Assembly: GCA_965218775.1 (NCBI GenBank)
Contig: CBDCLS010000004.1
Span: forward strand, 983,890 to 1,047,889
DNA length: 64,000 nucleotides
Origin: Acidobacteriota bacterium
GTDB lineage: Bacteria; Acidobacteriota; UBA6911; RPQK01; JAJDTT01
Reading direction: 5' to 3'
Made by a program: the position numbers and the translations under genes. The number at the start of each line of letters is the position of its first letter. Within the stretch, counting starts at the first letter, position 1. The notes below the pieces were generated by a model that was given only the letters and a program-made list of their open reading frames with translations, was not told the DNA's origin and made no database searches. This document shows, piece after piece, positions 3,967 through 48,701 of this stretch.

Positions 3967-4734
3967 ATGTTGAATCGCAGGGAGCTGTTGGAACTGCTGC
4001 TGGCCGGTGCGCTGACCCCCAAGGATTACCTCGTTCGGAGGCCCCGAGTAGAAGCACTATGGAAATCCCCGGATTCGTACCCCAATGCCCTCGAGGCAAC
4101 GGACGCTGGCTTATGGGTCGGGGAACAGCTCACCAACATCGCCTACCTGCTCGATTGGGAAAAGGGCAAGGTACTTCGGAGAGTCCCGACCGAGTCCACC
4201 AACACCAGCGGAATGGCCTATGGGAATGGCTTCCTCTGGATGGCTGCCAACGGCCCTGCCCTGAGGCGCGAACCACGGCCTTCCGACTCCAAAACCGGAA
4301 TGGTACTCAAGGTTGATCCAGGCACGGGCAAGACGCTTGCCCGCTACCCCATCCCGGGAGGAGGAGGGGTCCACGGTCTCACCTGGGCTGAAAACTCCCT
4401 CTGGATCACGACGCTGAGACGAAAAAGCCTGACCCGGGTCGATGCCGGTTTCAAGGAACTCCACAGCATTCCAGTGACCCTGGGACGAGCCCACGGGCTA
4501 GCCTGGGACCGGGATACGATCTGGTGCATGTTCTCCAATGATCGTGTGATTCATAGACTGGATGCCAGTGACGGCCGCATTCTCGAAGCCATCCAGCTGG
4601 GTTCATCTGATCCGGATCCCCACGGCATGACTCTCCACAAAGGTACGTTCTATTACACCGACGCAGGTATCGCACCCGGAGGTGGAGACAATGGGAGTCG
4701 CAACGCGGGATACATCTGCCGACTCCATTTATGA
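3967..4734 (+). CDS. secreted beta-propeller protein, possibly glutaminyl-cyclase-like (tentative)
   Basis: It has a Tat-like N-terminus (MLNRRELLELLLAG). It also has repeated WxxxD/HGL blade-like motifs (HGLTWAENSLW, HGLAWDRDTIW). The length (~255 aa) fits a 5-bladed propeller. Confidence 0.4.
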   Translation: MLNRRELLELLLAGALTPKDYLVRRPRVEALWKSPDSYPNALEATDAGLWVGEQLTNIAYLLDWEKGKVLRRVPTESTNTSGMAYGNGFLWMAANGPALRREPRPSDSKTGMVLKVDPGTGKTLARYPIPGGGGVHGLTWAENSLWITTLRRKSLTRVDAGFKELHSIPVTLGRAHGLAWDRDTIWCMFSNDRVIHRLDASDGRILEAIQLGSSDPDPHGMTLHKGTFYYTDAGIAPGGGDNGSRNAGYICRLHL

Positions 4735-5298: not shown

Positions 5299-6153
5299 AT
5301 GGCCGCAGAAAACCGAATCCCGGACAACCTGGTGACAACCGACTGGGCCTCGCTCAACACTGCCCAGCGAATCAAACATCTCGAGATTGAAGGGTACGTC
5401 CTGGTTCCGGATCTACTGTCTCGGGATCAGATAAAGATCATCAAGAAAGAGCTCGATCGACTTCCCACGACCCCAACCGACTACAGCGAGAACCAGCGAG
5501 GATACTCCCACGTCCAGTGGACCGAATCCCCGAATGCGATTGACGTGATTGCCCTTCCAGCGATGGTGGACTTCCTGTCCGCGCTGTTCGGAGACGAAAT
5601 CCTTTGTACTTCCTGCGTCTTCGCCGTTTCCAGGCCGGGGCATCCCGGCATCGCCATCCATACCGATTCCCAGCCCTACGGATCGGCGATATTGGGCTTG
5701 CAGGCGAGTGCCCCCAAGCTGCTGCGCGTCCTTTATTACCTCGACGACCTCACCCCTGAGCGATCGCCCCTGAAGATGATTCCGCACTCCCATTTGTCAC
5801 TACATGCGGACGCCAACCCCTACAACCGATTCCTCAGTCACCCCGAAGAAGTGATGGTGACCTGTAAAGCAGGGGCAGCGGCCATCATCAACCAGCAGGT
5901 CTTTCACGGCAACTACCCCAATCGCAGTCAGCAGGACCGACGCATGCTGGCCGTGGCATATCGGCCGGCCTGGGCGGGTCCGGTCTATGAAGTACCGGAT
6001 TGGGATCAAGAGAAGGTAGCCGCTCTACCTGATCACATCAGGCTCTTCTTCAAGAGCCTCAATACGCGGAAGGTCGACTTCAACGTAGGGAATCGACCTC
6101 CGGATATGGCGGAGGAGGCGCCGGGGATCAATCCCAGCCGCTGGGACGTATGA
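5299..6153 (+). CDS. phytanoyl-CoA dioxygenase (PhyH) family Fe(II)/2-oxoglutarate oxygenase
   Basis: An HTD...H-type facial triad region is present (IAIHTDSQPY ... FHGNYPNRS). The overall layout fits PhyH. Confidence 0.65.
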   Translation: MAAENRIPDNLVTTDWASLNTAQRIKHLEIEGYVLVPDLLSRDQIKIIKKELDRLPTTPTDYSENQRGYSHVQWTESPNAIDVIALPAMVDFLSALFGDEILCTSCVFAVSRPGHPGIAIHTDSQPYGSAILGLQASAPKLLRVLYYLDDLTPERSPLKMIPHSHLSLHADANPYNRFLSHPEEVMVTCKAGAAAIINQQVFHGNYPNRSQQDRRMLAVAYRPAWAGPVYEVPDWDQEKVAALPDHIRLFFKSLNTRKVDFNVGNRPPDMAEEAPGINPSRWDV

Positions 6154-6429
6154 ATAGGAGCGAGTTGTTTGGCTGGTGTGCTTTGGGATAGGTAATCGCG
6201 TGTCTTATGACTGCCTTTAGATCTTGGATGGCAACGCGTCGGCGGTTTGATTGATTTGCTAGACCTCTGCCCGGCAGCGGACTACTCCGGATTCTTTCCG
6301 AGATCGGCTTTCTCGCCATGGCGCACCAGGAAAACCAGCAGAGGGTCATTTGTCGACGCGGAAGGATTGGGTGTTGATGAACAGAGGATCGGCGTGATCG
6401 TTAAGAGTAAGGTGGCAACCGCGGACGCC

Positions 6430-14865: not shown

Positions 14866-14877
14866 GGGTGAAACCCA

Positions 14878-15068
14878 AGAGGGAAGATACAAGAGACAAG
14901 ATACAAACAAATCTCAAATTCCAAGCTCCAAACGTCGTGGCCACTGGGAAATCTTTGCGAGTGGTAGCCCCGCGGGAATCGAGAACTACATCGGATCGTT
15001 TGAAATTTGGTGCTTGTGATTTGGAATTTGTTTGTATCTTGTATCTTGTCCCTTGTATCTTCCCTCTT
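14878..15068. repeat. large imperfect inverted repeat (~50-bp arms, AT-rich) flanking ~80 bp
   Basis: The left arm is gagggaagatacaagagacaagatacaaacaaatctcaaattccaagc. Its reverse complement is gcttgtgatttggaatttgtttgtatcttgtatcttgtcccttgtatcttccctc. Confidence 0.55.
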
Positions 15069-15088
15069 GCATCTTGGCTTCGCTCCCC

Positions 15089-18906: not shown

Positions 18907-18972
18907 GTTTCCTTCTTCCTCCTTGCGACGACGGCGCCTTCAACCGTCCGGGGCCATTTACAGCGGGTTTTA

Positions 18973-19863
18973 CTACTTGCCGCCTTTAAACGAAGCAAAC
19001 TGCCGATCGGCCAGGTAGCTGGAGCGCACCAGGGGACCACTCTCAACATGCTCGAACCCCAAATCCTGTCCCACCTGCTTCCAGTACTCAAACTCCTGGG
19101 GATGATAGAAACGATCGACAGGCAGGTGCCAGGAAGAGGGCCGAAGGTACTGCCCCAGAGTCAGGATTCCGACCCGGCGTTCCACCAGATCCTCCATGAC
19201 ACTCCGGATTTCGTCCTCCTTCTCTCCCAGACCCAGCATCATTCCGGTCTTGGTCACAATATCTGCAGAGATCTGACGCGCTCGCTCCAAAACATTCAAT
19301 GACAGCGCATAATCGCCACCGCCACGGGCTGAGGGATAGAGCCGCGGCACGGTCTCGATATTGTGGTTGAGAATGTGGGGATGAGAGTCGAGTACGACCC
19401 GGAGTGCACGCTCAGATCCCTTGAAGTCGGGAATCAGCACTTCGACGACACAGCCAGGGTGGAGCCGCCGAATTTCCGAGACGGTTTCGGCAAAGGTCGC
19501 CGAGCCTCCATCCTCGAGGTCGTCTCGATCGACCGAGGTAATGACAGCGTGTTGAAGGCCCATCACACGCACTGCCTCGGCAACCCGCCGGGGTTCCTGA
19601 CGATCCAGGGCCAGGGGGGCCCCCTTGGAGACGGCGCAGTAGCGGCAGCCACGAGTACAAATCTTCCCTAGAATCATGAAGGTTGCGACCCCATGATCCC
19701 AGCACTCTCCCATGTTGGGACAGTGAGCCTCCTCGCACACGGTGTTCAACTTCAGGCCGGCAAGCAGCCCTTTGAGGTTGTGCACTCCCTCGCCAAACGG
19801 CGCCCGCACCTTGAGCCAGGGAGGGTGTCGTGGGGAAGCTGATTTTTGCCTTCTCTCCTCCAT
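18973..19863 (-). CDS. lipA: lipoyl synthase
   Basis: Radical-SAM motifs CTRGCRYCAV and CEEAHCPNMGECW are present, with a conserved C-terminus. The start MEERRQK is the complement of 19861-19863. The track ORF is spuriously extended 5' through a repeat. Confidence 0.9.
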   Translation of the reverse strand: MEERRQKSASPRHPPWLKVRAPFGEGVHNLKGLLAGLKLNTVCEEAHCPNMGECWDHGVATFMILGKICTRGCRYCAVSKGAPLALDRQEPRRVAEAVRVMGLQHAVITSVDRDDLEDGGSATFAETVSEIRRLHPGCVVEVLIPDFKGSERALRVVLDSHPHILNHNIETVPRLYPSARGGGDYALSLNVLERARQISADIVTKTGMMLGLGEKEDEIRSVMEDLVERRVGILTLGQYLRPSSWHLPVDRFYHPQEFEYWKQVGQDLGFEHVESGPLVRSSYLADRQFASFKGGK

Positions 19864-19927
19864 AGCAGCGTTTACATTAACAGATTTATTTTCGTCCTGC
19901 AGGGGGCTTACGAGGAACTCAACATAC

Positions 19928-20163
19928 CCGTTTACCGTCCCACCCTTGCCTTTGCCCGTGCCCGTGCCCTTGCCCTCTGATCTCATCTTCTGGTCGCATC
20001 GAGGCTTTTGACCAACCCGCTCGGTATTGACTCGATTCTCCCGATGTAAACTGCTCTCCGCAGCGGCGTTCAGAAGCCGCAGGCTGACTAGGGAGACGCG
20101 AGACGATCCTGGGAGCGGCACGGGCACGGGCACGGGCAAAGGCAAGGGTGGGACGGTAAACGG
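19928..20163. repeat. MITE-like element bounded by a perfect ~41-bp inverted repeat, in the intergenic region upstream of lipA
   Basis: The left arm ccgtttaccgtcccacccttgcctttgcccgtgcccgtgccc (19928-19970) is the reverse complement of the right arm gggcacgggcacgggcaaaggcaagggtgggacggtaaacgg (20121-20163). The arms contain (GCCCGT)n microrepeats. Confidence 0.65.
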
Positions 20164-20170
20164 ATACGAC

Positions 20171-21388
20171 TCAGCCCGAAAGCTTGATTCCGAAGACTGT
20201 GAGCAGCTGGGCAAGTACGGTATGAATCTCGAAGGCTTTTCCGGCAGCCCGATTTTCGGCCACGATCCTCTCGCGGCGAGGTCCATCTTGAAACAGATCC
20301 AGGATCGCTTCAGGCCAGGATCCAACGCCGGGCAGCGACTCACACCAGCGAAGATTCTCCTCTCCCAAGGCCTCTGCAATACCACCAGAGCGCGGGCCAG
20401 TAGTGAAGAGCACCGGAGTCCCTGTCGCGCCAAACGTAACTGTAGAGCTGCTGATGGCTTCAGTGAAAGTCGATCGCTCCTCCAAACCAGAACCCATCAC
20501 CATCAGATCGGTCCGAGTGGCCAGCGCCAGCACCTTGGGGAAGGTGAGGGGGCCCACCCAGGCGCGCCCGTCCGAGACGTGGGTGGCAAGAACCTGATCT
20601 ACCCTCGATCGCTCGGGACCCGAGCCGGCCATGACTGCGACAAACGATGAATCCAGGCCCAGAAGCTTATCAATCACGTGCGCGACGTGGAGGGCACCCT
20701 TCTCGCCCGCCATCCGGCCCGCGAAGACCACCAGCTTCTGGCCAGCGCTTTTTGATCGAGGGAAAAGCTCTTTGATCAGCTCCTCAGCGTCGGCATCGAA
20801 GGTCTCCTGGGCGAAGGGATGGAAGGTCACCGGCGCCACCACACCGGTTACGGGAACCCCGATTCCAGCTGCCAGATCGCGAAGCCAACGGGACACAGTG
20901 AAGATCCCACTACACGCGTCCAATGCTCGGCGGTAGCGTTGACCCGCAGCCGTGTCTCCCCATGACTGCGTCAAGACCAGGGTGTCGGTCCCGCGCAGCA
21001 AGCTGACTACTGGAGTTCTACTAGGCAGACACACGTTCACGACGTCGGCAAGGTAGCTCAGCGGCGAAATCGCCAGGACTCCACCAACACCCCTCGGATT
21101 CTCCTGAAGCACGGCGTCTACTGCGTCGGCGACGGCGCAGGAACTGAGGCTGTGTGGCACCTTCTCCATGGCCTGGTACTCAACCTCGATCCGCCGATAC
21201 AAAGGAGTCGCCACCGGAGGTGTTATCTCGACGCTGTGCCGGGGGCCCTCATCGGTCGTGTGGGTGATGTGCACCACCGGCACCTGGGCGCTGCCGCCCA
21301 GAAACTCGGATAACTGCCAGGCGAAGATACTGTGTCCTGAAAGATAAGAAGCGGGATTTCGGGAGATGATGATCAAGGGTCTCTTCAT
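20171..21388 (-). CDS. glycosyltransferase family 4 (GT1-type fold)
   Basis: The C-terminal half is GT4-like (VVFAGRMAGEKG...). It overlaps the upstream GT4 gene by 4 bp. Confidence 0.7.
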   Translation of the reverse strand: MKRPLIIISRNPASYLSGHSIFAWQLSEFLGGSAQVPVVHITHTTDEGPRHSVEITPPVATPLYRRIEVEYQAMEKVPHSLSSCAVADAVDAVLQENPRGVGGVLAISPLSYLADVVNVCLPSRTPVVSLLRGTDTLVLTQSWGDTAAGQRYRRALDACSGIFTVSRWLRDLAAGIGVPVTGVVAPVTFHPFAQETFDADAEELIKELFPRSKSAGQKLVVFAGRMAGEKGALHVAHVIDKLLGLDSSFVAVMAGSGPERSRVDQVLATHVSDGRAWVGPLTFPKVLALATRTDLMVMGSGLEERSTFTEAISSSTVTFGATGTPVLFTTGPRSGGIAEALGEENLRWCESLPGVGSWPEAILDLFQDGPRRERIVAENRAAGKAFEIHTVLAQLLTVFGIKLSG

Positions 21389-22611
21389 GGCGACACCCCG
21401 TCGATCAGCTTCCGGTATAAACCCACATAGTCACGGGCGTATCGATCCAAGGTTAGACGCTTCGCCGCTGCCCGGCCGGCATCTGCCAGCTTTCCTCGAA
21501 GTTCATCCGAGAGCAGTACCGATTCCAGGCCTCCCACCAGCTCCTCCATCGAGTCGGGTGAAAAGGTGATTCCGTTGACCCCATCCTGTATGTACTCCAC
21601 GAGCCCACCGTCGTTGGCTACTGCCGCGCAACAACCGAGTAACATGCCCTCGAGATGGCAGCGCCCTGCTCCTTCGTTACGAGCCGGATAGACAACGACG
21701 TCCGCAGCCGCGTAGAGCGCACGCAGGTCTGCCGGAGCGAGGTTGTCGAGAAAGGACATTCGCTCCGCCACACCCAGCCGAGACGCCATCATCTCAAGGC
21801 TTTCCTGGTAGCCAGAACGTTCCGGAAGAGTGGGACCCGGCAAGGCGAGGTGCGCGAGCAAACCTGATTGCTGAATGGGCACGCGTTGGAGCAGCCAATA
21901 CATTCCCTGGATCAGAAACGCGTGATTCTTTCTCGGGATGAATCGGGCAGGGTAGACCAGCAGCCTGTGGGTGGCGTCAGGGGCCAACTTCCGGCGCCAA
22001 GCCTGGACGTCGGCGTCGTCGGCCTGGGCAGGATTCCAGAAATCCCGGTCCACGAAGAAGCCTTGATAGTCCACCGATCCCCCAGGAAGAGCCGACGCAG
22101 AAAAACCACTGATCGCACAGGTCCGGTCCACCAGTTGGGTCGCCTCGCGGAGAATCTCCACCATCTCAGACTTGGCGGGCATCCCGTCATGATGAGTAAG
22201 GACGCTGGGAAGCCCCCGTCGGCGTGCCACACGCAGTGCCACCACCTGCACCCAGTGCCGGACGATATGAACATGCAGAAGGTCAGGTTGCTCCCGCTCG
22301 AGCAGGTTCTCCAAATGCCGTTCGAAGGACGCTAAAGCTTCCTCGGAGTCCATCTCCGTTCGTCCCGGAGTGCGCATCGGTACCACGCAGGGGAAAAGAC
22401 GAATTCCGGTTTCGGGTTGGATCCACTCCTTCCCCCTCCGTTCGACCCGTCCCGAGGCTTCCAACTCGTCCATATGCGACGCCCCCACCAGAAACGTCTG
22501 GATCACGTCGACGTCGTCCAGCTTCACCAGGGCAGCATTCAGTGCCTGAAGATGGGCCATCATGCCGCCCGTGTTGACCAGATAGTCGTGGGAAAAGCGA
22601 AGGATCTTCAC
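21385..22611 (-). CDS. glycosyltransferase family 4 (GT1-type fold)
   Basis: It has the LLVYPARFIPRKN ... EGAGRCHLEGMLLGC pattern of GT4 retaining transferases. Confidence 0.7.
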   Translation of the reverse strand: MKILRFSHDYLVNTGGMMAHLQALNAALVKLDDVDVIQTFLVGASHMDELEASGRVERRGKEWIQPETGIRLFPCVVPMRTPGRTEMDSEEALASFERHLENLLEREQPDLLHVHIVRHWVQVVALRVARRRGLPSVLTHHDGMPAKSEMVEILREATQLVDRTCAISGFSASALPGGSVDYQGFFVDRDFWNPAQADDADVQAWRRKLAPDATHRLLVYPARFIPRKNHAFLIQGMYWLLQRVPIQQSGLLAHLALPGPTLPERSGYQESLEMMASRLGVAERMSFLDNLAPADLRALYAAADVVVYPARNEGAGRCHLEGMLLGCCAAVANDGGLVEYIQDGVNGITFSPDSMEELVGGLESVLLSDELRGKLADAGRAAAKRLTLDRYARDYVGLYRKLIDGVSP

Positions 22612-22806
22612 AAGGGGACCGTCACGGCAAAGCAGACAGAGGCGGGACCCTGACAGCGCATGCCTGCAATGTAATGGCCCTACCTCCTGAAATCAAGGCC
22701 GGGCGGAGTCGCGAATGAACCTATCGTCATTTCCGACAAACCTTGCAAACGCATGCCGAGGGGTCTACGATTCCCGGCAGAGGCGGCGCATCCAGGACGG
22801 TGACCT

Positions 22807-23940
22807 ATGACCTCTCTCTCAAGTAAATTGCTACTCGCTCTGAGTGTACTGGCGATCGTGAGTCTCTCGATCGCGATCGGCGCTGCTGACACGCCCATTC
22901 CCGACCTCTCAGGAAAGATCTTGACGGTGAAGGGACCCATCGAGCCAAAGCTACTGGGACCTACCATCATGCATGAGCACGTCCTGATCGACTACCGGGG
23001 AAGACCCGAAGAACGGATCAAGAGCGCCACTGATGCGAGTTTCTACGAGGAACCTGTCTCCCTCGGCAACCTCAGCAAGATTCGGACCTGGGTTTCTGAA
23101 AACCAGGACAATCTGCTGCTAGGCGACGTCGATCTGGCCCTCCACGAAGTCCTGGATTTCAAGCGCTGGGGAGGTAGTGGGATCGTCGACTGCACCAGCA
23201 TCGGCCTGGGAAGGGACCCCTCCGGCCTGCTCCAGGTCTCCAATGCCAGCGGTCTGCACCTGATCATGGGCTCGGGATTCTACGTTGAGAGCTTTCACCC
23301 CCCGGACATGGACCAGCGAACCGTCGATGACCTGACCAAGATCATCATCCGTGACGTCACGGTCGGAGTCGCCGGGACCCCGATCCGCTCCGGGATCATC
23401 GGAGAAGTCGGGGTTGCCAGGGGATTGAAAGCAAGTGAGCTGAAGGGTGCGCGAGCAGCAGCCCGAGCCAGCCGCGCCACCGGAGCAGCCATCTCCTTTC
23501 ATCATGCGGGTGCGGGAGAGGAGAAGTTCACCACTCTCGACCTGGTCGCCTCCGAGGGAGCGGATCTGAACCGGGTCATCATCGGCCATGCCAACCACAT
23601 TGCTACCGATATTCCCTACATGAAACGGCTGCTCCAGCGGGGCGTGTATATTCAGTTCGACCTCTTCGGAGAGGTGATTCCGCGGCTGGGCCGCATCCAT
23701 GACTATGAGGTCGCGCAATCCATCGTCCAGCTGGTAAAGGACGGTCATGCCAATCGGCTCCTCCTCTCCCAGGACGTGTGCACCAAGTCCATGCTGAAGA
23801 CCTACGGAGGTATGGGTTTCTCCTACGTCATGGAATTCGTGCTGCCCGAGTTGCGGAGGTTGGGGGTGGCAGAGGACGCTCTCCGGCTGATCATGGTTGA
23901 GAACCCCAGAAGGGTCCTGACCTTTGCCAAGCCTGGTTAA
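22807..23940 (+). CDS. phosphotriesterase family protein (PTE / PLL-like metal hydrolase), secreted
   Basis: The signature GPTIMHEHVLID is present. It has a signal peptide and a TIM-barrel length. Confidence 0.7.
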   Translation: MTSLSSKLLLALSVLAIVSLSIAIGAADTPIPDLSGKILTVKGPIEPKLLGPTIMHEHVLIDYRGRPEERIKSATDASFYEEPVSLGNLSKIRTWVSENQDNLLLGDVDLALHEVLDFKRWGGSGIVDCTSIGLGRDPSGLLQVSNASGLHLIMGSGFYVESFHPPDMDQRTVDDLTKIIIRDVTVGVAGTPIRSGIIGEVGVARGLKASELKGARAAARASRATGAAISFHHAGAGEEKFTTLDLVASEGADLNRVIIGHANHIATDIPYMKRLLQRGVYIQFDLFGEVIPRLGRIHDYEVAQSIVQLVKDGHANRLLLSQDVCTKSMLKTYGGMGFSYVMEFVLPELRRLGVAEDALRLIMVENPRRVLTFAKPG

Positions 23941-24623: not shown

Positions 24624-24917
24624 GCTAAACAGAGCGTCTTAAGTCTACGGTAACGTTTGTGGCGAGCGCGACGGGTCGAGGGCGCGAAGCGTCTCGACGC
24701 GAAGCGACGACGAGGCGATGCTTGGTATCGTAGAGGAGGAGCGACAAAGCCATCGGCCCGTCCCGTCGCCACCCGCGGGGCAGAGGGGGGTTGTGGACGA
24801 TCTCTGCGTGGGTCGTCGTCGAAGATGGCCAAGCATCGACTTTCTCCTCCCGCCTTGATCTCGCCTCACAAGCCCCCTCTGCAAACGTCACCGTAGACTT
24901 AAGACGCTCTGTTTAGC
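24624..24917. repeat. MITE-like palindromic repeat, copy 2
   Basis: It has the same conserved core as 2340-2615. Its own 28-bp terminal inverted repeat is gctaaacagagcgtcttaagtctacggt / accgtagacttaagacgctctgtttagc. Confidence 0.7.
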
Positions 24918-31598: not shown

Positions 31599-31769
31599 GC
31601 GGGACAATCGGGGGTGACCCAGAATCCTCAAACTGCCGCTAGTACTCTGTCAACCTGGAGATTGTGGGTTATGGACGAGCCATGGTGGTCGAGGTCAAGG
31701 CACGCGGCCGCAGGCATAGCTTGGTCTACGTCCAGGACGCGCAACGCAGAGATCGGCCGCCAGGGCCGT

Positions 31770-32525
31770 TCAGAACCTACAATTTCCAGGTTGACAGGGT
31801 ACTAGGGTCTCCAGAAGCTTTCCGAAGCCCAGTACCGGCTGCCGAATTCCCAGAGCGCGAAAGACCGACCAGATCGTGGCCTGATTGGAGGTCACTACTG
31901 GCTTTCCCGTGATCTTCTCCAGTGCGTCGGCAGCTTCCATCGCTCTCCAGGCGGTGCAGGAGCAGAAGAGTGCATCGGCTTCGGGTCGACACACCGAGGA
32001 GGCGAAGTCGACAATAGCTTCGGGGTCTTGATCGTTGATCCCCTGTTGGCCCGCAACCGCCGCGACTGGTTCCGCTTCCAGGTTGAGCACCGAGAATCCG
32101 GCCGCCTCCAGATAGCTCTGCAGTCTCTGATTCCCCCAATCCGAATAGGGACTGGCGACCGAGATCTTCTTGGCTCCGATCGAGTTCAGCGCCTCCACTG
32201 CCGCGGGACTGGTCACCACGGCCGGGACTCCTGCCGTCTTCTCTATCAGGTCAGCCATCTCCCGGTCCCATCCGGCTCCCCTGTAGAAACTGCCGGTGGT
32301 GCAAGCATAGGCAATGACGTCGACCTTGGCGGTCGCCAGATAGCGGGCACCGCTCTCTATGTCTTCGTTCATTCGCCCCATGCCATCTTCACTTCGGGTC
32401 TCGTTGGTGAGCCAGAGACGCTGGCCATGAAGGGTCACACCTTCAGTAACGGCCATCTGGAAGTCTGCTTCGCAGGTCGTGTTGGTGGAGGGGACCAGTA
32501 GACCCACCCGCTTTCGAATACTCAT
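31770..32525 (-). CDS. Asp/Glu/hydantoin racemase family protein (maleate isomerase / arylmalonate decarboxylase-like)
   Basis: The family pattern includes conserved Cys-containing segments (IAYACTTGS, LFCSCTAWRA). Confidence 0.6.
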   Translation of the reverse strand: MSIRKRVGLLVPSTNTTCEADFQMAVTEGVTLHGQRLWLTNETRSEDGMGRMNEDIESGARYLATAKVDVIAYACTTGSFYRGAGWDREMADLIEKTAGVPAVVTSPAAVEALNSIGAKKISVASPYSDWGNQRLQSYLEAAGFSVLNLEAEPVAAVAGQQGINDQDPEAIVDFASSVCRPEADALFCSCTAWRAMEAADALEKITGKPVVTSNQATIWSVFRALGIRQPVLGFGKLLETLVPCQPGNCRF

Positions 32526-32606: not shown

Positions 32607-34080
32607 CTGGACATTCCCCATTTTTCAGAGGCCCAGAGGAAGCAGGGACAGCTGACGGGAGCTGGGATCGGGTCGAGCCCCGCCAATCCCGCTGTGGCGG
32701 CCGAATAGGAGCTGCTTGATGCCATCGGCTATGGCATAGAAGCGGAACTCCGGGATGCCGTAGATCCGTTTGGCTGCCTGCTCGATGTGTTGGACCAGAA
32801 GGGCCAGCTTGGCCCTTTTACCCAGATAGACACAGGCGAAGAAGGCGGCGATCATGACCAAGGCGGCCATATTGCGCAGGCGCTCATACTTGAGCAAACG
32901 GATGTCTTCCAACTCGTAGCTCTGCTTGATAAATCGGATCGTTTCCTCGACACGCCAGCGGCTCAGATAGCTCTCGACCACCCGCCACTGGCTCTTGCGC
33001 GAGCGTTTGACCGTCTGGTTCGTCAGAAGCATCAGGGGACGGGGGCCAAAGCCATCCACCACCACCAGGTACAGCGATTGGTCGAAACCGGGCAAACGCA
33101 CCCCTCGGGCCCCAAACTCCAACCGGTAGACCTTCTCCCCCGCACTCGTCTCCTTGATCACGACTTCCCGGTAGCGGCGCCGACAACCACGCGCCCACTC
33201 CTCGGCGCTCTTCTTGCTGCGCCCTGAGATCAGGTGACGATCCCCCCGCTGGCACACCAGGAACGGGTGTCCCCGCTTCAGCAGGACTTCGAGGATCTCC
33301 TCCCGATCCCCTCCCCGGTCCATCACCCAGATCCCTCGCCCTTGGGTGGCTTTGGAGACTCGCCCAATCGCCTTGAGGATCTCGTCGTTTTCGCTCACAA
33401 AGTCCGGCGCTTTCTGCGAGTACAGCTCCTGGTACAACGGCAGCACCTCGGCACTCCCCCGCCTCGCTCCGACCACCTCACAGCACCAGTATCCATCTCG
33501 GATCTCCCCTCGGGAGCCGTCCCGGACCCGCGCCAGGTATTGCATCTTCCGGGCATATGGCTTACTCACATCCGTGGGGTCCACAATCAACAGCGTCTCC
33601 TTCTCCACCCGCCAGGCCGCCAACTCCAGCAGATTCTTTCCCACCGCTCCTCTCAATCCCTGACGGTTGAGTTGGCGGCTCAGCCGCTCGATGACTTTCT
33701 TCAGAGCGATCTCCTCCTCCAGTGCTCGCGCAATCTCGCTGAGCCGGACCGACGCCCGACACTGCATCCCGTAGAGCACCTCCCGGATCAAACGAGCGGC
33801 GGTCTTCGGTAATCCTTCAGAGACCTTCCCCGAAAATTCTCTCAGCTGCTCTCGAATCTTCCACGCTACTTTGGCATCATGCATCTGGGTCCCTCCGCTT
33901 AATTGGTTGTTGGGTTTGGAGTTCCGCCAACCAGTCTAAGCGCTAGGGACCCACACTTTTGGGGGTCGACAGTTCCCCCATTTTCTCCCAATTTCAACCC
34001 ATCCCACTTCCCTTATCGCCCTACTCTCTTGTTCTCAACTACTTGAGAGAATTCACCCTCAATTTTTGGGGAATGTCCTG
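32607..34080. mobile_element. IS element (DDE transposase, IS4/ISAs1-like), 1474 bp, with a 9-bp target-site duplication
   Basis: The terminal inverted repeat is ctggacattcccca (32607-32620) / tggggaatgtcctg (34067-34080), with 1 mismatch. It is flanked by the direct repeat ataccttgc at 32598-32606 and 34081-34089. Confidence 0.75.
32625..33884 (-). CDS. DDE-type transposase
   Basis: This 419-aa ORF fills the IS element. Its features are transposase-like (DDE_Tnp_1-like). Confidence 0.7.
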   Translation of the reverse strand: MHDAKVAWKIREQLREFSGKVSEGLPKTAARLIREVLYGMQCRASVRLSEIARALEEEIALKKVIERLSRQLNRQGLRGAVGKNLLELAAWRVEKETLLIVDPTDVSKPYARKMQYLARVRDGSRGEIRDGYWCCEVVGARRGSAEVLPLYQELYSQKAPDFVSENDEILKAIGRVSKATQGRGIWVMDRGGDREEILEVLLKRGHPFLVCQRGDRHLISGRSKKSAEEWARGCRRRYREVVIKETSAGEKVYRLEFGARGVRLPGFDQSLYLVVVDGFGPRPLMLLTNQTVKRSRKSQWRVVESYLSRWRVEETIRFIKQSYELEDIRLLKYERLRNMAALVMIAAFFACVYLGKRAKLALLVQHIEQAAKRIYGIPEFRFYAIADGIKQLLFGRHSGIGGARPDPSSRQLSLLPLGL

Positions 34081-43152: not shown

Positions 43153-44330
43153 TGATCTCATAAGAACACGGCCTCCTCGTCAGGGTCGACTGCTATTGAG
43201 CAGTAGGTTGGCCCGGAGTTCAGACGAGTCTGGGGACTCATCGACGAGGAGGCCAAAATGAAAGTAATTGGATGTGATTTTCACACAAGGTTCCAAGTGA
43301 TTGCAATGCTGGATACGGAAACGGGAGAGCTGCAGGAGCGACGCTTGAAACACGAAGGAAAGGAGGTGGAGCGATTCTACGGGGCGCTGCAGGGTCCGAC
43401 GGTGGTGGGAATTGAAAGCACGGGGTATTCGATCTGGTTTGACGAGCTGATGGACGAGTTGGGGGTGAAGCTGCAAGTGGGAGATGCGGCGAAGATCCGA
43501 GCCCAGCGGGTGCGCAAGAAGAAGAATGATGAGGAGGATGCGCGACTGATTCGGAAGCTGTTAGTGGAGGATCGTTTTCCCCAGATCTGGGTGATCGACG
43601 CCGAGGGACGGGATCTGCGTCAGGTGCTGAGTCAGCGCCGGCGCTGGGTTCGGACGCGGACCCAGATCAAGAATGGGCTGCAGTCGTTGGCGCTCAATCA
43701 TCGGCTGGCGTTGGGGTCGAAGTTGTTCAGCCAGGCGGGGCAACGAGCGTTTGCCCAGTTGAAGCTGCGTCCCTACGCCCAGCAGTCGGCGGAGCAGTGG
43801 TGGGAAGGACTGGAGTGGCTCGGGCCTCGGATCGCCGTGCTGGAGCGACAGATCGAGCAAGCGGTGGCCCAGCGACCCGAAGCGGAGCGCCTGAGGACCT
43901 ATCCTGGGGTGGGACCGGTGACGGCCCTGGCCTGGGTGCTGATCGTGGGTCCGATCCAACGCTTTGGCGGTGGGGGCCAGTTGTCGAGCTACGTGGGCTT
44001 GACGCCGACGGAGCACTCCAGTGGGGGCCGGCAGCGGTTGGGTCACATCAGCAAACAGGGATCGAAGTTCCTGCGCTACCAACTGGTGGAGGCGTCGGTC
44101 TCCGTGAGGCGACTGCAACCGGAGCTGCGTCGTTTCTACCGTCGTTTGACCTCTCGTCGCGGGTTCCAAGTGGCCCAGACGGCGGTGGCCCGAAAGTTGT
44201 GTGAGCATCTGTACGTGATGCATCGAGATGAGATCGACTATGCGGAGTTCGTTCGCCGCGGTCTTCTCGCGAGGCGTGCTTGAGAAGATTCATGACTTGT
44301 CTAGAGTCGACAAGCTGATTAGGCAGCCTC
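43150..44330 (+). mobile_element. IS110-family element (ends approximate; this family lacks terminal inverted repeats)
   Basis: The transposase gene has ~100 bp of leader. It sits immediately beside a REP-like repeat, which is the usual IS110 target preference. Confidence 0.4.
43258..44283 (+). CDS. IS110-family transposase
   Basis: It has the N-terminal DEDD-type catalytic module (VVGIESTGYS) and the C-terminal YPGVGPVTALAWVL...SYVGLTPTEHSSGG motif typical of IS110/IS116/IS902. Confidence 0.8.
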   Translation: MKVIGCDFHTRFQVIAMLDTETGELQERRLKHEGKEVERFYGALQGPTVVGIESTGYSIWFDELMDELGVKLQVGDAAKIRAQRVRKKKNDEEDARLIRKLLVEDRFPQIWVIDAEGRDLRQVLSQRRRWVRTRTQIKNGLQSLALNHRLALGSKLFSQAGQRAFAQLKLRPYAQQSAEQWWEGLEWLGPRIAVLERQIEQAVAQRPEAERLRTYPGVGPVTALAWVLIVGPIQRFGGGGQLSSYVGLTPTEHSSGGRQRLGHISKQGSKFLRYQLVEASVSVRRLQPELRRFYRRLTSRRGFQVAQTAVARKLCEHLYVMHRDEIDYAEFVRRGLLARRA

Positions 44331-44394
44331 GCCTCCTTCAAGCGGAAGGAGTCCGGACTGTAGATGATGCGTTTAACGAACGGGGTGGCGAAAA

Positions 44395-44566
44395 GGTCGA
44401 GGAGCCCATTGCCTTGGGAAAACTGGAGTACAGCAGAGGCGGCAAGCCGTCAAGGGGCTACGCCCCTGCTTCTGTCGCTGCGCTCCTTACGCCCCTTCGG
44501 GTGACCGCTTCCCGCCTCTGCTGCGGGGAGGCTTTCAAGAAGGCAATGGGCTCCTCGACCTTTCCT
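44395..44566. repeat. perfect 23-bp inverted repeat pair enclosing ~125 bp
   Basis: aaggtcgaggagcccattgcctt (44395-44417) is the reverse complement of aaggcaatgggctcctcgacctt (44544-44566). Confidence 0.5.
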
Positions 44567-45046
44567 GGAGGCGGGCTTACCGCGCAGGGACGACCGAGGA
44601 GACCCCTTTCGTGCAAGAAGGCGCGAATAGATGGATGGGAGAGACCGACGTCTGAGGGCGTCCACCCGCTAGTCCTAAGCAAAAACGACAGTCCCCAGAC
44701 TCGAAACGAATTGCTATGGCCAACCGAACCAGTTCTCTTGCTGCCTCGTCCGTGACCGGACTCGGCGTTCAATCGGCTCTTCGAGCCGATCTAGGGGAAG
44801 TGTGCCTTGACAACGACCGTGTTCTTATAGATGAAACTTCATTCGAACCTCGCACGTCCCGGGTCACGGGTTGCTGCGAGAACTATGGAAGCCTGAAGCG
44901 CGAGCGAGGGGGTGGTCGAATGCTTTTTGGCAACGCATCTCGCAGATTCCCAACCCCTCGCTCGCGCTTCAGGCTTCTATGGCTCAGTCAGTTTCTTTCT
45001 CGAATGGGGCCAGCACCGCTGGGGGCAGGACTAACCTGAAACTTGA

Positions 45047-47663: not shown

Positions 47664-48428
47664 ATGATCATTGTGAGAAGGCGCTCTTCTTTACCGGTCT
47701 TCTTGATCCGCGTGGGTCTTGCCTTGGTCTTCGCGGCCGGTTTGTACTTTCTACACGCTCCTCTGCTGAATCGGCTGGGACAGATCCTGGTTCATCAGGA
47801 TCCTTTGCGTCCTGCCGACGCCATTACGGTCATCCCTGGCCCCGGCAGGGAGCGGATGAGGACTGGGATACGGCTCTTCAAAGAAGGATTCGCGGAGAAA
47901 CTGATACTCTGCGGGTCTTGGCCAGATTCACTGGTCAAAACGGCACTCAACGCCGGCGTTCCCTCCTCACAAATCGTGTACCGCAAATCAACTCCAGAGG
48001 ACTATCTCTGTTGGAAATGCTCGGTCCCCATCAGTGGTACGGCCGGGGATGCCCAAGTGATCGTGCAACTTCTGGAGACTTCAGGGATGGACAGCATCAT
48101 CGTGGTTACCTCGGACTACCACAGCGCCCGCACCGCTTCGGCGTTTCGACAACTTCTCAAGAACAAACCAATTGTGATGATGGTCCAACCCACCCAGGAG
48201 CAGTTCCCCGATCTCAACAGCTGGTGGGAAGACCGCTACAGCGCCCGGCTGGTAACGGGGCAACTGCAAAAGACCGTGTTTTCACTGTTCTCCGAGCAGC
48301 TGCCGGATTGTCTTCTGCATCCGATTCAGGACCCTTTGTCTAACGTGGCCGGGAAGCTCAGGTCCCTACTCCTATCCCAACCCGACTTCATGAGGCAGGG
48401 ATTACGCGGCGAACAAGGTCAGGACTAG
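47664..48428 (+). CDS. DUF218 / YdcF (SanA/ElyC-like) family protein
   Basis: The DUF218 core is ITVIPGPG...LILCGSW...VTSDYHSARTASAF. It has an N-terminal transmembrane segment. Confidence 0.55.
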   Translation: MIIVRRRSSLPVFLIRVGLALVFAAGLYFLHAPLLNRLGQILVHQDPLRPADAITVIPGPGRERMRTGIRLFKEGFAEKLILCGSWPDSLVKTALNAGVPSSQIVYRKSTPEDYLCWKCSVPISGTAGDAQVIVQLLETSGMDSIIVVTSDYHSARTASAFRQLLKNKPIVMMVQPTQEQFPDLNSWWEDRYSARLVTGQLQKTVFSLFSEQLPDCLLHPIQDPLSNVAGKLRSLLLSQPDFMRQGLRGEQGQD

Positions 48429-48701
48429 TACGCTGTAACACAGATTATGACGGATTTATGGCGAGCGCGACGGGTCGAGATCGCGAAGCGACGACGAACG
48501 CCATGCTTGGCCATAGTGGAGGAGGAGCGACAAAGATATCGGCCCGTCCCGTCGCCACCCGAAGGGCAGATGGGGGTTGTGGACGATCTCTGCGTTGGTC
48601 GTCGTCGAAGATGACCAAGCATCGTCTTCCTCCTCCTGCCTTGATCTCGCCCCACAAGCCCCATCTGCAAATCCGTCATAATCTGTGTTACAGCGTACTA
48701 G
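48425..48701. repeat. MITE-like palindromic repeat, copy 3
   Basis: It shares the conserved core. Its own terminal inverted repeat is ctagtacgctgtaacacagattatgacggatttatg / caaatccgtcataatctgtgttacagcgtactag. The left end supplies the TAG stop of the DUF218 gene. Confidence 0.7.

Follow-up and report, generated by a model that had tools for sequence, protein, structure and literature searches.

The window, i.e. the whole stretch of 64,000 nucleotides that was analysed, carries a group-1 glycosyltransferase (GT) gene and, downstream of it on the same strand, lipA, and a long inverted repeat (IR) lies between the two (Table 1). The first-pass annotation had described a perfect inverted repeat of 41 bp between lipA and the upstream glycosyltransferase gene. 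The repeat is real and perfect, its arms are complementary on exact recount and it lies between the two genes named, though the arms measure 42 nt rather than 41. The perfect arms are separated by 152 nt; with two mismatches they lengthen to 50 nt at 96%, leaving 142 nt between them, and the element as a whole, terminal IRs included, is 242 nt long. In 100 dinucleotide shuffles of the window, no matching inverted repeat arose. The (GCCCGT)n microrepeats reported earlier in the arms correspond to a hexamer run in the lipA-side arm and a complementary run in the other, and the spurious long ORFs that were said to arise from the repeat are present on both strands. Two coding readings, as a Gly-X repeat peptide and as an N-terminal extension of LipA, were considered and rejected, as the lipA ATG and the non-coding block upstream of it are conserved and the intergenic region of the outgroup is 57 nt long.

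Table 1. Features of the GT-lipA locus and of other repeats and transposase genes (window positions, unless a relative, L001 etc., is named)
Feature	Position	Strand	Remark
lipA (lipoyl synthase)	18973..19863	-	Radical_SAM and LIAS_N domains; downstream of the IR
Group-1 glycosyltransferase (GT)	20171..21388	-	Stop codon precedes the IR on the transcribed strand
Conserved block (T/C)CTGCAG-N-TGTTAATGTAAaCGCTGCT-ATG	19864..19905	-	Outside the IR
Perfect arm, lipA-proximal, 42 nt	19928..19969		At 96% reaches 19925-19974
Perfect arm, GT-proximal, 42 nt	20122..20163		Reverse complement of 19928-19969; extended 20117-20166
Hexamer run GCCTTT GCCCGT GCCCGT GCCCTT	19948..19971		Within the lipA-side arm
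Complementary hexamer run ACGGGC x3, AAAGGC	20120..20143		Other arm
Spacer, 142 nt	19975..20116		100% identical to L001 4748-4889, inverted with respect to the flanking genes
ATAC, 4-nt direct repeat	19924..19927 and 20164..20167		Abuts both arms; read from the sequence
Spurious ORF, 486 aa	18973..20433	-	
Spurious ORF, 207 aa	20027..20650	+	No Pfam match
Spurious ORF, 89 aa	19742..20011	+	No Pfam match
IS1380-like insertion sequence (IS)	L001 3003-4692		In the outer GT-proximal arm; 465-aa DDE_Tnp_1_4; TIRs of about 20 nt starting CCCGGATTTCTCAAGG; 4-bp TSD TTAG; absent from the window
ORF-less group II intron	L085 5391-5562		Between palindrome and lipA; Rfam RF02003, D1-D4, 54.7 bits against a gathering score of 49
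MITE-like element	44880-44985; L002 4708-4842; L082; L091		TIR GGAAGCCTGAAGCGC(A/G)AGCGAGGGG; one copy between GT and lipA in the L002 lineage
Repeat family, core about 210 nt	2339-2616; 24624-24917; 48425-48701; L001 5930-6158		Four copies, core >90% identical
Microrepeat IR	14876-15069		Arms GATACAAGA/GACAAGATACAAAC, 49-56 nt at 80-84%
Shorter IR element	31639-31805		39-nt arms at 87%; termini CTAGTACTCTGTCAACC, like those of the 210-nt-core family; at the end of an arylmalonate-decarboxylase-like gene
DDE_Tnp_1 transposase gene	32625-33884		About 800 nt from the shorter IR element
IS110-family (DEDD) transposase	43258-44283		
Perfect 24-nt IR with 124-nt spacer and nested 22-nt IR	44392-44563		Follows the IS110-family gene

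RNA folding yields a single long hairpin from either strand, with −168 kcal/mol for the minus and −164 kcal/mol for the plus strand (z about −11). A G-quadruplex in the G-rich arm was also considered; in the window the (GGGCAC)n stretch provides only three G3 runs, separated by short loops, and the relatives have GG runs only, so that the candidate was discarded as not conserved.

The block immediately upstream of the lipA start codon, which can also be written (T/C)CTGCAG...TGTTAATGTAAtCGCTGCT-ATG or ...TGnTAATGTAAtCGCTGCT, is nearly invariant in all relatives, including the outgroup that has no IR. It is a candidate promoter or short leader of lipA, and the transcription start site of lipA is predicted to lie at its conserved TAATGTAA motif. 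No Shine-Dalgarno sequence can be recognised ahead of the lipA ATG. The block may represent an extended −10 promoter giving a very short-leadered or leaderless lipA mRNA, although a simple sigma-70 scan did not call it. That scan found no sigma-70-like promoter on either strand of 19600-20500, with a consensus that may not be that of Acidobacteriota, and manual reading found no −10 element suitably spaced from the conserved TTGAC motifs.

Comparison of LipA loci places the window among uncultured Acidobacteriota (UBA6911-like MAGs), and the closest species representatives show 92-95% LipA identity. L001, a metagenome contig (sample ERZ25067264) with an identical LipA and ~97-98% identity to the window over 8 kb, is treated as conspecific. 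The GT-lipA synteny is kept in all relatives retrieved. A hexamer-repeat IR follows directly on the GT stop codon in L001-L006, L083, L085-L088 and L090; these IRs are imperfect, are built of (GCCYKT)n/(AMRGGC)n hexamers whose unit varies by species (GCCCGT, GCCTTT or GCCTCT), and occupy the site of the window's repeat in most close relatives. Hexamer-repeat arms with a homologous spacer are found in L001, L004, L006/L083/L090 and L085, and arms with a short spacer in L005/L086-L088. L003 has a clean GC-rich hairpin of 16 bp with a 2-nt loop and no spacer, L002/L082/L091 have a remnant of one arm and an unrelated MITE-like insert, and L089 has no hexamer IR and a fragment of a different repeat. 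In the outgroup (L092/L094, GT 74% identical), 57 nt without an IR separate the two genes.

The arms measure 14-45 nt at 71-93% complementarity in the other species and 46 nt at 91% in L001, so that the perfect 42 nt of the window is the extreme of the series. The earlier view that a perfect palindrome is unlikely to be old is borne out by the imperfect arms of L001 and by the shorter, imperfect arms of more distant relatives (14-35 nt at 71-93%). The outgroup and L089 lack the element and a 1.7-kb IS cuts it in L001, so that it is judged to be dispensable; its sequence also evolves fast. The spacer is composed of two parts: a core from 19975 to about 20042 (CTCATCTTCTGGTCGCATCGAGGCTTTTGACC...) is common to L004, L006, L083 and L085, and the portion from about 20043 to 20116 is specific to the species of the window and L001. 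About 65 nt of the core are kept across species at 85-89% GT protein identity; this survival hints at some constraint, which lies outside the account of the best model given below.

Comparison of the window with L001 reveals a difference in the orientation of the spacer. The lipA-side flank (window 18963-19972 against L001 5901-4892) aligns in minus orientation at 98.5% and the GT-side flank (window 20157-23157 against L001 3001-1) in minus orientation at 97.4%, whereas window 19943-20166 aligns in plus orientation at 97.8%, with its inner 142 of 142 nt identical. As the flanks run antiparallel while the spacer runs parallel, the orientation of the spacer is opposite in these two conspecific genomes, both orientations being seen between genomes and not within one population. 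Spacer-core alignment and BLAST assign the window and L085 to one orientation (A) and L001, L004, L006, L083 and L090 to the other (B). The GT+lipA tree pairs the window with L001 and L085 with L003, and places L004 and L006 in the other clade; with orientations A and B mapped on it, at least two independent flips are needed. The bootstrap tree is poorly resolved, probably due to GT recombination, its consensus grouping L001 with L002 at 59% support, and therefore only the minimum of two flips is claimed. LipA of the window and LipA of L001 are 100% identical, whereas their GT proteins share only 96.3% identity, and this contrast, together with the unstable bootstrap trees, suggests recombination inside the GT genes.

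The opposite orientations would be an artefact if an assembler had placed the spacer arbitrarily between identical arms, as can happen in short-read assemblies where the inverted repeats at the ends of a segment exceed the k-mer in length. However, the arms are only 42-50 nt long, and the contig names (ctg..._5x_l) and megabase contigs point to long reads spanning 240 nt, as far as names can tell. Furthermore, L085 independently shows orientation A in diverged sequence. An assembly artefact is rated as extremely unlikely.

The MITE-like insert at the same intergenic site of L002 and L082 may behave in a comparable manner. Its interior matches between the two at 92.6% in reverse over 135 nt, as against 86.9% forward over 320 nt, and mismatches of the inner arms stay put while the interior is reversed. 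The reversed interior may be a second IR-mediated flip.

The element was further examined for mobility, since the first-pass annotation had proposed a second MITE family and a search for the arm elsewhere. Within the 64-kb window the arm matches only the two arms themselves; a BLAST search with the element in 895 kb of DNA from relatives hits the GT-lipA intergenic site only, and the exact 21-nt arm core has no match in genome, metagenome and viral collections, from which the source species is apparently absent. Comparison of the orthologous lipA upstream regions shows the element at the GT-lipA site of nearly all close relatives, which speaks against mobility. That annotation had itself regarded presence at this locus in all relatives as the mark of a conserved regulatory hairpin rather than a mobile one; the element is at the same locus in nearly all close relatives and the MITE proposal fails on this ground. 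Absence of a second copy from the DNA searched and the shared site in most close relatives indicate an element that is vertically inherited and locus-bound in the clade, and not a currently mobile MITE.

A reading of the element as a non-autonomous transposon with 42-nt TIRs, either currently mobile or an in-situ relic from the clade ancestor, does draw on several features of the locus. The orthologous site of the outgroup is "empty" at 57 nt, the 242-nt size and the terminal IRs resemble those of MITEs, and the ATAC repeat flanks the perfect arms. Moreover, the genome holds several MITE-like IR elements of 150-300 nt, at least one such family being polymorphic for presence or absence between the window and L001, and the GT-lipA spacer is an insertion hotspot that has received the IS in L001, the MITE in L002/L082/L091, the group II intron in L085 and the repeat in L089. 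However, the element diverges along with its host, and no matching transposase was identified. Its outer arm is homologous to flanking sequence of the relatives, so that extension of a palindrome fits better than imported termini. ATAC occurs by chance at ~1 in 256 positions and has no counterpart in the relatives; the pair is weak TSD-like evidence and probably a chance occurrence. Presence/absence polymorphism with a TSD was not seen among close relatives, only the distant outgroup L092/L094 being empty. The transposon reading is accordingly rated as quite unlikely, although an ancient MITE insertion is a possible origin of the element, in view of the empty outgroup site, the richness of the genome in MITE-like elements and the insertion hotspot.

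The window holds further inverted repeats. In the family with a core of about 210 nt, the arms of 33-36 nt are ~40-60% alike between copies (by eye) and 97-100% complementary within a copy. In L001 a copy is located between lipA and CMD; the orthologous site of the window (18907-18972) lacks it, which marks this family as mobile. For one copy, the folding energy is −156 kcal/mol (z = −12); the family has no Rfam match, and its core motif is unmatched in viral contigs. In L089, a TTTGGAGCTTGGGATTTGAGATTTGT fragment at about 4250-4300 of the GT-lipA spacer resembles the inner arm of the microrepeat IR of the window and replaces the hexamer palindrome. The nested IRs that follow the IS110-family transposase gene may be the non-coding end or an RNA region of that element.

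Apart from inversion, the GT-lipA element has undergone changes of four other kinds. Firstly, L086, L087 and L088 have an identical GT protein and intergenic regions of 186, 192 and 180 nt, in which hexamer units in both arms are the sole difference. Hexamer copy number also differs between L006 and L083, and between the window and L001 (GCCCGT x2 against x4). Secondly, the GT-side arm reads CCGTTTACCGTC in the window and CCGCTTAGTGTC in L001, with the IS and one copy of its TSD taken out; ..GTGTC is the reading in L085 too. Three clustered changes in the outer 12 nt of the window's GT-side arm turn it into a perfect complement of the lipA-side arm, an arm that does not differ between the window and L001. 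Thirdly, the spacer is deleted in L003, the sister of L085. Finally, the region has been invaded by mobile DNA. The 1.7-kb IS of L001 stands between GT and lipA in opposite orientation, which implies that lipA is independent of read-through from the GT gene. In L085, an insert of about 900 nt (roughly 5365-6270) contains the group II intron, and the call of its lipA at 349 aa is attributed to this insertion upstream.

Persistence of the hairpin could also reflect selection on a regulatory RNA or DNA structure, i.e. a terminator lacking a U-tract, a 3' stabiliser of the GT operon transcript or a lipA attenuator, in which case the inversion would be noise. The hairpin begins 4-7 nt past the GT stop codon in every lineage possessing one, its complementarity persists with z = −4 to −8.7 in nine of the eleven folded (L005 −2.4, L004 −1.4), and L003 keeps its clean GC-rich 16-bp hairpin even without a spacer. 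However, a scan of 19600-20500 for terminators is empty; the stem is present but is followed by GGGUAUGUUGAGUUCC in place of a U-tract. Search of Rfam 15 gave no match at the gathering score in the whole window and none even at E <= 1 in 19700-20400. Loss in the outgroup and L089 and interruption in L001 argue in the same direction, and as microsatellite arms pair in any register, complementarity need not mean selection. Selection on the sense RNA in particular was tried and rejected, sense and antisense folding and G-U content having no consistent bias. A selected hairpin is thus considered unlikely, and the case for the terminator/attenuator or regulatory cruciform named in the first-pass annotation is weak. 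Since the folding energies are without a sense-strand bias, the effect of the hairpin in the cell is most likely incidental.

The spacer may alternatively be a programmed inverton, in which a site-specific recombinase flips the 142-nt segment and thereby, as a form of phase variation, switches lipA expression or alters how stable the mRNA of the upstream GT operon is. Invertons are typically found beside loci for glycosyltransferases and surface polysaccharides, and the GT gene is such a neighbour. Occurrence of both orientations within one species with a 100% identical spacer, repeated change of orientation in the clade and conservation of the spacer core are in accord with such a switch. The total size of ~240 nt also fits reported invertons, more than 75% of which are under 300 nt (PMC11602134). 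However, Pfam search of 48 window ORFs detected no tyrosine or serine recombinase (Phage_integrase, Resolvase, Recombinase), the sole transposases among them being the DDE and IS110-family genes of Table 1, and the spacer has no promoter-like site on either strand. The arms differ between species (14-45 nt, 71-100% complementarity) without a conserved recombination core, and vary in length by slippage, unlike the core sites of recombinases. Moreover, the element is located downstream of the GT genes and not upstream, housekeeping lipA has its promoter-like block outside the IR, where it is kept in the IR-less outgroup, and the IR is split by the IS in L001, lost in L089 and reduced in L003. 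A programmed inverton is consequently held to be improbable; it is retained at this low level because invertases can act in trans from outside a 64-kb window and because the spacer core is conserved. An equally improbable elaboration is a true phase switch in this uncultured, possibly host-associated lineage, with the segment flipped by a trans-acting recombinase encoded beyond the window, or else by a Piv/IS110-like enzyme. Each flip would switch read-through from the GT operon, the stability of its transcript's 3' end or antisense transcription into the operon, and slippage of the hexamer arms would provide a second level of tuning.

The reading preferred here, to which a probability of about 0.6 is given, takes the feature as a long inverted repeat that is resident and inherited vertically, with arms that slip and homogenise and a spacer that flips, most likely as a by-product of replication or recombination and not as a switch. 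Slippage alters the hexamer copy number in the (GCCYKT)n and (AMRGGC)n arms, as the length variants show. One arm would be copied onto the other through template switching or gene conversion, which would have produced the perfect 42-nt arms of the window, as suggested by the clustered changes. The spacer, the inversion of which is observed, would turn through strand switching or recombination between the arms, and is sometimes lost by deletion. A transcript that runs on from the GT operon would form a very stable stem-loop of about −160 kcal/mol, which could stop transcription or protect the 3' end, and expression of lipA would start at the conserved block beyond the repeat. As a flip leaves the hairpin intact, it would probably switch nothing.

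Arms of 42 nt suffice for RecA-mediated recombination. Template switching between IR arms leads to arm homogenisation and spacer inversion that are recurrent and reversible (PMC8604942), and the same is stated of quasipalindrome mutations in E. coli (PMC7202029). Both signatures of this process are found at the locus: clustered substitutions raise the complementarity of the window's arms relative to the state in L001 and L085, and the arms are retained while inversion of the spacer recurs on the tree, with at least two events. As documented spacers are much shorter than the present one and the arms are long enough for RecA, commitment is limited to an inversion that is mediated by the IR and not site-specific, for which RecA recombination would be as possible as template switching.

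The locus thus offers a clean natural case of long-IR behaviour over short evolutionary time in an uncultured phylum, where a single site, in genomes differing by 2-15%, displays homogenisation, inversion, slippage, spacer deletion and repeated invasion by mobile DNA. It is a new instance of a known phenomenon, and what is added is the inversion of the spacer between conspecifics. It also serves as a warning that a perfect IR found in both orientations is insufficient to call an inverton or a MITE, as predictors working on genomes only could flag such loci. If the flipping were programmed after all, regulation by invertible DNA would extend to Acidobacteriota and to a site downstream of the regulated operon.

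Among known systems, REP/BIME elements and 3' stem-loop stabilisers of mRNA are similar in being extragenic, GC-rich palindromes without a U-tract, situated just past a stop codon with the next gene on the same strand. A REP measures about 35 nt, and hundreds of copies with a conserved sequence occur, whereas the lipA element is confined to one locus and is about seven times as long; single copy and excess length rule out a REP/BIME identity. MITEs share with it the size of ~240 nt, the long TIRs, the absence at the outgroup site and a host genome in which MITE-like elements abound, but the lipA element is single copy, stays at a fixed locus across species and has no convincing TSD or cognate transposase. 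Invertons such as fimS/FimBE, hin/hix and the Mpi promoters of Bacteroides (PMC11602134) likewise have IRs bracketing ~150 nt in both orientations, are under 300 nt and lie by GT genes; here, in contrast, no invertase or internal promoter was found, the IR is length-variable and not conserved, and the likely promoter lies outside.

The closest likeness is to quasipalindromes and short inverted repeats that evolve by polymerase template switching (the Ripley model, E. coli hotspots, and yeast and proteobacterial IRs; PMC8604942, PMC7202029, PMC5941160). Their documented arms are about 10-16 nt with spacers of 2-5 nt, as compared to 42-50 nt and 142 nt here, and the arms of the lipA element differ further in being hexamer microsatellites that also slip. 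The features shared with the lipA element are clustered multi-base changes that match one arm to the other, spacers inverted between close relatives in recurrent and reversible events, and complementarity that outlasts the drift of the sequence.
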